45,917 nt of DNA, taken from the NCBI GenBank assembly GCA_014750165.1, contig GCA_014750165.1_4319.1, one strand, 5' to 3'. Below, in pieces: positions 36,272 through 36,701 of this stretch. A program made the translations under genes and the position numbers. The DNA comes from a phage. The notes beneath the pieces were generated by a model. The model saw only the letters and a list, made by a program, of their open reading frames with translations. It did not search any database and was not told where the DNA came from. The stretch's first letter is position 1. Each line of letters opens with the position of its first letter.

Positions 36272-36463
36272 ATGATTACAATTAACCTATCAGAGGAAAT
36301 GGCTGCCGACCTTCTTGATTCACTAAGCCTGGTTAAAATTCGATACGGAACTTACCACAGAAGCGAATCAGTAAAGGAAGTGGTAAAGCAAGTTAAGCAG
36401 CATGTCGTAGCGGCCAAAATTGAATTGCAGAACACCCCGTACGATTTTAATAAAGGTGAATAA
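36272..36463 (+). CDS. hypothetical protein, tandem paralog 1 (MITINLSE...)
   Basis: Start at internal ATG after GAGGAAG; N-terminus MITINLSEEMAADLL. Confidence 0.45.
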   Translation: MITINLSEEMAADLLDSLSLVKIRYGTYHRSESVKEVVKQVKQHVVAAKIELQNTPYDFNKGE

Positions 36464-36464
36464 G

Positions 36465-36701
36465 ATGATTACGATTAACCTGTCAGAGAAGGATGCAGAG
36501 GTGCTGAAGAGTGGCTGCAATTACCTTCGCTCAATTAAAGCATTCAACGATAATGAAGTTAATAAGAATGTCATTCAACAGATCAACAACCAGCAGTTCG
36601 ACGTTAGTGACTTTGAGAGTTCAAGGCAATACGAGGCGATGAGCGTCAATGCTGCGTACATTGATAAAAAAGTATGGGAAAAGGCGAGAAATAAAAAATG
36701 A
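36465..36701 (+). CDS. hypothetical protein, tandem paralog 2 (MITINLSE...)
   Basis: Start at internal ATG after AAGGTGA; N-terminus MITINLSEKDAEVL. Confidence 0.45.
   Translation: MITINLSEKDAEVLKSGCNYLRSIKAFNDNEVNKNVIQQINNQQFDVSDFESSRQYEAMSVNAAYIDKKVWEKARNKK

Follow-up and report, generated by a model that had tools for sequence, protein, structure and literature searches.

The phages T1 and Rtp encode proteins of the Pfam family DUF7180 (PF23805) in the block of small genes upstream of their terminase genes. The T1 protein, gp60 (ST60, YP_003885.1), is the best DUF7180 match (110 bits) and has 114 amino acids (aa), about 40 of which lie past the Pfam-matching part (residues 1-76). The Rtp protein is rtp7. 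A single DUF7180 gene is present in T1, and one is seen in Rtp within a 5.3-kb stretch. Small open reading frames (ORFs) without known function make up about half of the genes of T1-like phages. Here we analyse a stretch of phage DNA of 45,917 nucleotides (nt) (contig GCA_014750165.1_4319.1, referred to as the window), in which, unlike in T1, two DUF7180 genes, termed A and B, follow each other in tandem. They share the MITINLS(D/E)K.A start, the N-terminal domain (N-domain) and the neighbourhood of T1 gp60 and rtp7. At 45.9 kb, the window represents the complete or nearly complete genome of an Rtp-like coliphage (Drexlerviridae, Braunvirinae). In the structural and replication half, DNA identity to CEB_EC3a, BEK2/3/6 and JeanPiccard is 87-88%, and the A/B region matches JulesPiccard, JeanPiccard and OzMSK/Msk at 78-89%. 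Our comparisons show that A and B are true paralogues over an N-domain of about 44 aa. The genes and the repeat at their starts are the following.

36272-36463, + strand: gene A, 63 aa, DUF7180 paralogue, an accessory, derived short form; N-domain residues 1-44, followed by the type-specific tail VVAAKIELQNTPYDFNKGE
36272-36295, + strand: first arm of a 24-nt direct repeat (codons 1-8, MITINLSE)
36465-36701, + strand: gene B, 78 aa, long-form DUF7180, orthologue of Rtp rtp7; N-domain, hypervariable middle (about residues 16-36) and conserved tail QINNQQFDVSDFESSRQYE...
36465-36488, + strand: second arm of the 24-nt direct repeat

Both proteins begin with MITINLSE. The two repeat arms agree in 22 of 24 nt, and the two differences (ACA/ACG and CTA/CTG) are synonymous. 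Immediately downstream (nt 25-60), identity is 9/36, which is the chance level. A first-pass annotation of the locus had described two adjacent genes that start alike and then diverge, and this is what the sequence contains. The length it gave for B (78 aa) is right, but its 64 aa for A counts the stop codon. In six frames, A and B are the sole pair with the same first six residues among 469 ATG-started ORFs of at least 40 aa, and the shared start is thus not due to chance. A tblastn search of the window with relaxed settings returned A and B as the only DUF7180 copies. The similar upstream leader that had also been claimed is not found: the 40-nt leaders have only a purine Shine-Dalgarno-like run and an AAG before the ATG in common, and are otherwise unalignable. 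The leader of A is the standard leader of this phage's promoters, whereas the leader of B is the 3' end of the A coding sequence.

A and B are real genes. A is represented by 41 protein clusters at 63-94% identity, with lengths of 63-64 aa except for one 68-aa cluster, and B has 327 relatives at E <= 0.01. The abrupt loss of nucleotide identity after codon 8 could be taken to mean that the genes are unrelated, and that the shared start arose by convergence or selection on the translation-initiation context, or through gene conversion of a short patch. The weak direct BLASTP alignment of A and B (14/44 identities, E 2e-4 in a single comparison) would fit this explanation, as would the lower synonymous diversity of the start (mean pairwise codon difference 0.14-0.19 in codons 2-7, against 0.40 in the tail). 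However, A and B each pass the DUF7180 gathering cut-off (27 bits, whole-protein score) independently. The scores are 30.4 bits for A (residues 1-46, profile positions 1-41) and 69.2 bits for B (residues 1-77, profile positions 1-73). Some close homologues of A fall slightly below the cut-off (23.7 and 25.5 bits), and A is therefore a marginal member that matches by its N-domain only. Likewise, both proteins match phrog_16063 and phrog_8335 over their first 42-46 residues. The phrog_16063 match of B extends over the full length (107.5 bits), and that of A covers profile positions 1-42 only. A profile-profile comparison with hhalign, of 41 A-type against 73 B-type clusters, aligns 43 columns with 97% probability and an E-value of 8.6e-11.

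The two types are also bridged by natural proteins that join an A-like middle (IKKIRYG...) to the B-like QINNQQFD. P0088, a B-type protein with the full long B tail that occurs as a single-copy gene in another phage, is identical to A in 22 of 41 positions (54%, 83% positives, no gaps, E 5e-16). The short form of phage P818 combines the A-like middle IKKIRYGQ with QINNQQFD and the end ENEGE. Across A-type, B-type, short-form and T1-type N-domains, M1, I2, I4, L6, A11 and Q39 are invariant, and L14 is nearly so; A11, L14 and Q39/40 are conserved in both types. The complete DUF7180 signature (MITINLS(D/E) start, A11, L14 and a Q that ends helix 2) is present in A and in B. The first-pass annotation had named likeness confined to the first residues and the leader as the finding that would speak against paralogy. 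In view of the family scores, the profile-profile match and the P0088 bridge, homology reaches residue 41-44 instead, and the leaders are not alike. Its proposal that the genes are paralogous is thus upheld, and we regard unrelated genes with a convergent start as a remote alternative.

An ORF upstream of A in OzMSK (L002, 1873-2115), and of the DUF7180 gene in P818 (L003, 1329-1499), starts with (M/V)INLT(D/E)(D/E)EC, which superficially resembles MITINLSEE. At their 3' ends, this ORF and gene A have a junction of the same type, GGTGA..TAAGATG. It was considered as a third paralogue and rejected (hhalign probability 2.4%, 11 columns).

B-type proteins consist of three parts: a nearly invariant start, MITINLS(E/D)K.A..LK; a middle (around residues 16-36) with high entropy, indels and at least 13 discrete classes that are not alignable with one another; and a strongly conserved tail, QINNQQFDVSDFESSRQYE.LSVNAAY. 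The long-form tail (phrog_16063, rtp7-type) is present in B and absent from A, which carries QVKQHVVAAKIELQNTPYDFNKGE in its place. B is the orthologue of Rtp rtp7, the long form that Rtp-like phages carry in general. Gene A differs from T1 gp60 and rtp7 in having its own 19-residue tail and no QINNQQFD. In total, at least five tails are attached to the N-domain, namely the long tail, the short ENEGE, a ELPWDTDTAWSRYEQICTALSGCQLASQYK tail, the C-terminal part of T1 gp60 and the tail of A. When middle classes are tabulated against tail types, one middle occurs with three to four tails, and vice versa, which argues for intragenic recombination. Nearly all codons of the B tail show synonymous variation, among it switches between TCA and AGT for serine and between CGN and AGR for arginine, and selection therefore acts on the protein. 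As codons 2-7 are synonymously less diverse than the tail, a nucleotide-level constraint is likely to operate at the gene start as well. Four B-type genes (P0030, P0172, P0181 and P0207) end right after QINNQQFD or QQFDVSDF, giving a long/short polymorphism within allele classes; these ends could be sequencing artefacts or real truncations.

Tandem, highly variable small genes with about 10 N-terminal residues in common are familiar from the internal proteins of T4, where the prohead protease cuts after (L/I)-x-E. The T4 proteins IPI, IPII and IPIII are, like A and B, encoded by tandem, copy-number-variable small genes with an identical N-terminus of 8-10 residues. By analogy, the shared N-terminus of A and B could be a capsid-targeting tag, and the proteins could be packaged and injected with the DNA to disarm host defences. 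Identical starts with differing remainders are the signature of such proteins, L6-S7-E8 of both window proteins fits (L/I)-x-E, and T1-like phages encode a head maturation protease (T1 ST50). In T4, however, likeness is confined to about 10 residues, whereas the homology of A and B spans a domain of about 44 residues, so that their N-terminus belongs to a folded domain and is not a detachable tag. Moreover, position 8 is Asp in very many orthologues (MITINLSDK), and the L-x-E site is therefore not conserved in the family. Neither of the two T4 hallmarks, confined likeness and a conserved cleavage site, is thus found. A and B also lie in the small-gene block upstream of the terminase, away from the head genes, and a literature search on DUF7180 did not uncover virion-proteome evidence. 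We consider a targeting tag highly improbable.

The first-pass annotation had interpreted the pair as a recent tandem duplication of rapidly evolving genes. Neither part of this interpretation agrees with the data. A and B share only 14 of 44 residues, and their DNA is at chance level right after codon 8. In addition, the same A adjoins at least three middle-allele classes of B: GCNYLR in the window, MLSIFEK in JulesPiccard, OzMSK and a metagenome contig, and MMNSFMP in JeanPiccard. Gene A is under purifying selection and is not fast-evolving. Among four phages, its synonymous divergence (dS) is 0.23-0.49 and its non-synonymous divergence (dN) is 0.03-0.05, with dN/dS of 0.09-0.15. The N-domain of A is closer to the IKKIRYG allele class (54%), which is found as a lone gene in other phages, than to that of the neighbouring B (32%). 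Its C-terminus (...PYDFNKGE) resembles that of the 52-aa short forms (...QFDENEGE), apart from about 11 inserted residues. From the low dN/dS, the several B allele partners, the affinity to the IKKIRYG class and the short-form-like C-terminus, we conclude that A is an old, derived copy from the IKKIRYG short-form lineage, that the pair itself is old, and that both copies are kept by purifying selection. A may have been duplicated in place long ago, or may have arrived when two phages with different alleles recombined unequally. The latter seems more likely to us, with the crossover at the conserved 24-nt 5' end or in the leader. We hold this evolutionary description of the pair, taken as a whole, with high confidence.

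Copy number varies among related phages, and A behaves as an accessory gene, as had been anticipated. B is found in 84 phage records, only five of which also contain A (about 92% identity). In IMG/VR, all 11 confirmed loci have one DUF7180 copy each. A is an extra copy in a minority of Rtp-like phages, located in a variable slot directly upstream of B. In phages without A (CEB_EC3a and 26174I), the same promoter and leader stand directly before B. Elsewhere, the slot is occupied by other small ORFs, by nothing, or, in Rtp (L004, 2432-2524) and BEK2 (L005, 1112-1204), by a clear, 30-aa homologue of the T4 anti-restriction peptide Stp. The Stp homologue immediately precedes the B orthologue, overlaps the start of that gene and is translationally coupled to it. 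The Stp-like ORF of BEK2 is unannotated, and its first codon as read from 1112 is GTG. No Stp-like ORF was found in the window in a six-frame regex scan. In Rtp, a polynucleotide kinase gene is located near rtp7.

The tandem pairs of JulesPiccard (bas03_0073/0074), JeanPiccard (bas02_0068/0069) and OzMSK/Msk have the same A-then-B order, and are annotated as hypothetical proteins only. In JulesPiccard, JeanPiccard and OzMSK, A is about 92% identical to the A of the window, and the junction GGTGA(A/G)TAAGATG between the genes is the same. The B partner differs (MLSIFEK or MMNSFMP instead of GCNYLR, and another tail end), and in OzMSK an unrelated 80-aa ORF precedes A in place of the promoter.

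The family as a whole is confined to T1/Rtp-like phages (Drexlerviridae). Among the matches listed for the 84 B records, all examples are T1/Rtp-like phages, whatever the host label. Two of the labels are unusual. MG065688.1 ("Campylobacter phage A110b") is an Rtp-like coliphage genome with an A gene 92% identical to that of the window, and PP134917.1 ("Pseudomonas phage PsgS01F") is an Rtp-like coliphage genome as well (87.5% DNA identity over 25 kb), which suggests mislabelled hosts or contaminating phages. An exhaustive hidden Markov model search of 1.84 billion representative proteins gave 10 matches at E <= 0.001, of which nine are small DUF7180-type proteins; the tenth, a protein of 3392 aa without a matched stretch, is probably spurious. 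All 65 family members that were scanned match DUF7180. In a search with the N-domain profile, the best 120 matches were DUF7180 proteins only, with no distant relatives carrying informative domains.

A and B lie within a + strand block of small genes of unknown function that extends from about 35300 to the terminase genes (39047-41143). The further elements of their surroundings are listed here.

36200-36216, + strand: copy TAGCACTAATTGCTAAA of a 17-bp, phage-wide, promoter-associated motif, marking the start of the putative A-B-C transcription unit
36234-36242, + strand: extended -10-like element TGtTATAGT, predicted from sequence, in the same position relative to the motif as at the other 17 sites
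36260-36263, + strand: Shine-Dalgarno-like GAGG of gene A, 8 nt ahead of the ATG
36454-36459, + strand: Shine-Dalgarno AGGTGA of gene B, inside the final codons of gene A (K-G-E-stop)
36698-36835, + strand: gene C, 45-aa ORF, phrog_3955 (function unknown), last gene of the putative unit, with a start that overlaps the B stop (ATGA)
36833-36849, + strand: next copy of the promoter motif, located by a motif scan, which opens the following unit

Genes A and B are 1 base apart. Since the three genes are flanked by two copies of the promoter motif (36200 and 36833), A, B and C most likely form a single transcription unit. Homologues of gene C directly follow B in JulesPiccard, BEK2 and IME542, and are found one gene further downstream in L011. 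Searches of gene C against Pfam and NCBIfam gave no match, leaving phrog_3955 as the only one. For the upstream 75-aa ORF, Pfam gave no match, and the only PHROG match is weak and non-significant (tail tube protein, E 0.23). An Rfam scan of the region detected no known RNA element other than a tRNA. This single tRNA gene (38659-38733, + strand, 52.9 bits) separates the small-gene block from the terminase genes, and related phages annotate a tRNA-Arg (AGA) at the matching place. Further upstream, a divergent intergenic region (about 34770-35320) separates leftward and rightward blocks. It contains only short spurious ORFs with low-complexity, AT-rich translations, and could serve in regulation, as an origin or in packaging.

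The palindrome TAGCA-N5-TGCTA is embedded in the 17-bp motif, TAGCACGAATTGCTAAA. The window has 18 copies of the motif, where 0.88 would be expected by chance, and phage T1 (L013) has 22. The motif is always oriented with the downstream genes (for example at 36200-36216, 36833-36849, 41141-41157, 25291-25307 and, on the - strand, 14045-14061). A TATAGT-like -10 element, often TG-extended, follows the motif after 20-22 nt, and then the conserved leader CATCGAAACGA. The spacing between TTGCTA and the -10 element, about 22 nt, exceeds that of a normal sigma-70 -35 element, which suggests an unusual promoter architecture or a site for a binding factor.

The stretch between motif and leader often forms an inverted repeat, variable in sequence, whose loop holds the -10 hexamer (for example GGGGTAA-tttggtatag-TTACCCC). 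Examples are found at 36857-36881, 25606-25623 and 17438-17462, and at the - strand sites 33039, 14808 and 22330. Six of the 18 motif sites fold at -12 to -14 kcal/mol, and the mean minimum free energy of the motif-downstream stretches is -7.4, whereas random 36-mers average -4.2 (Mann-Whitney p = 0.002). The T1 record annotates at least one hairpin of this kind (38973-39001, beside a motif copy at 38954) as a rho-independent terminator. The hairpins may be terminators of the upstream unit, promoter hairpins, or both.

AlphaFold2 models of A (predicted local distance difference test, pLDDT, 69.9; predicted template modelling score, pTM, 0.50) and B (pLDDT 68.5, pTM 0.35) both have an extended stretch of residues 1-7, followed by two helices that form an alpha-hairpin. 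The predicted helices are 8-25 and 32-53 in A, and 8-23, 25-28 and 31-41 in B, which continues into a low-confidence tail. The models gave no informative structural match. Sequence searches of the PDB found no relatives at E <= 10 with the full B profile, and only chance-level ones (E >= 0.059) with the N-domain profile.

In the models, an extended N-terminus is followed by a helix, a loop and a helix, an order that recalls the ribbon-helix-helix (RHH) fold. The RHH proteins, which include CopG, Arc, MetJ and antitoxins of the RelB and ParD type, are of similarly small size, with a strand-like N-terminal peptide and two helices. A and B could therefore be cryptic RHH DNA-binding proteins, in which MITINLS would be the pairing, DNA-reading beta-strand of an A2, B2 or A:B dimer, and the two helices would be the RHH helices A and B. 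The target could be TAGCA-N5-TGCTA upstream of every promoter; T1 shares with the window both the palindromic motif and the possession of a DUF7180 gene. As a variant, the proteins could be orphan mimics of RHH-type antitoxins, with a conserved, disordered tail that neutralises a host toxin. The segment I2-T3-I4-N5-L6-S7 has alternating hydrophobic and polar residues, and MITINLS resembles the CopG strand, LTITLSES, with 18 columns aligned by hhalign at 39% identity. The B tail is conserved and yet disordered in the model, as in type II antitoxins, and two of the 65 family members weakly match Pfam DUF6290 (E 0.016), a family with a possible link to RHH.

However, the hhalign probability for CopG is 9%, no named RHH family was hit in Pfam at E <= 10 (65 + 10 members scanned), and no RHH protein was matched in the PDB sequence searches with either profile. 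Pfam, PDB profile and hhalign comparisons thus gave no significant match to an RHH family model or a solved RHH protein. The helices are longer than typical RHH helices, the region between them is hypervariable with indels, and the N-domain is slightly acidic rather than basic and lacks a basic N-terminal arm. There is also no adjacent toxin-like partner gene: neither gene C nor the upstream 75-aa ORF is recognisable as the toxin that would be expected next to a type II antitoxin. An RHH fold for A and B is therefore unlikely. It is more doubtful still, and in our estimate very improbable, that the DUF7180 N-domain is a cryptic RHH domain that reads TAGCA-N5-TGCTA, which lies upstream of all of the approximately 18-22 promoters of T1/Rtp-like phages, and acts as an unrecognised global transcription factor of these phages. 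If it did, the interchangeable tails and the extra copy A would tune its activity.

In our preferred view, A and B, which are ancient tandem DUF7180 paralogues, may act as small protein-binding factors of an accessory or early block upstream of the terminase genes. In the models, the conserved parts (N-terminal peptide and tail, together with the beginning of helix 1 and the end of helix 2) are located at the open end of the hairpin, and the variable part is at the turn. This distribution suggests a small binding module that would hold a conserved partner via its termini, with the open hairpin end, the invariant N-terminal peptide and the conserved tail as the putative contact surface. The hairpins would probably pair as homodimeric or A:B heterodimeric four-helix bundles. 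A host protein with a part in takeover or counter-defence is the probable partner. A host-directed factor is favoured by the Stp homologue in the slot of A in Rtp and BEK2, together with the nearby polynucleotide kinase gene in Rtp. The host-factor inhibitor suggested in the first-pass annotation is a plausible guess from such context. The idea of an acidic DNA mimic was considered and rejected, A and B being near neutral (pI 6.1 and 7.8).

Several points weigh against this proposal. The models are of moderate confidence (pLDDT 68-70, pTM 0.35-0.50) and describe monomers, which makes the dimerisation a guess. Literature searches on DUF7180, MITINLS and the function of rtp7 returned nothing. 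The hypervariable middle may reflect relaxed constraint on the hairpin turn rather than an arms race. The early or accessory placement is deduced from position, and the same promoter type is found genome-wide. Finally, part of the N-terminal identity could be due to constraint at the nucleotide level, for example from translation initiation or recombination. That the proteins are small protein-binding factors which serve host takeover or counter-defence, perhaps in the form of homodimers or A:B heterodimers, is therefore a tentative suggestion, made with low confidence. The combination of ancient tandem paralogy with this mechanism is nevertheless the best explanation overall, and one that we consider somewhat more probable than not to be correct.

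On present evidence, A and B are an ordinary accessory paralogue pair of a catalogued, uncharacterised Pfam family, and no new kind of system. The same tandem pair is already contained, unremarked, in the deposited genomes of JulesPiccard, JeanPiccard and OzMSK/Msk. The anatomy of the family, with an invariant start, a recombining middle, swappable tails and occasional doubling, appears to be previously undescribed. T1-like phages are common laboratory and fermentation contaminants, and are also candidates for phage therapy. For DUF7180, the analysis provides a defined anatomy, consisting of an invariant N-terminal heptapeptide, a helical hairpin with a hypervariable, recombining turn half, at least five interchangeable tails and occasional doubling, which is unsurprising for phage accessory genes and useful for the design of experiments. 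If the proteins are indeed counter-defence or takeover factors, the diversity of alleles and tails would map their specificity.

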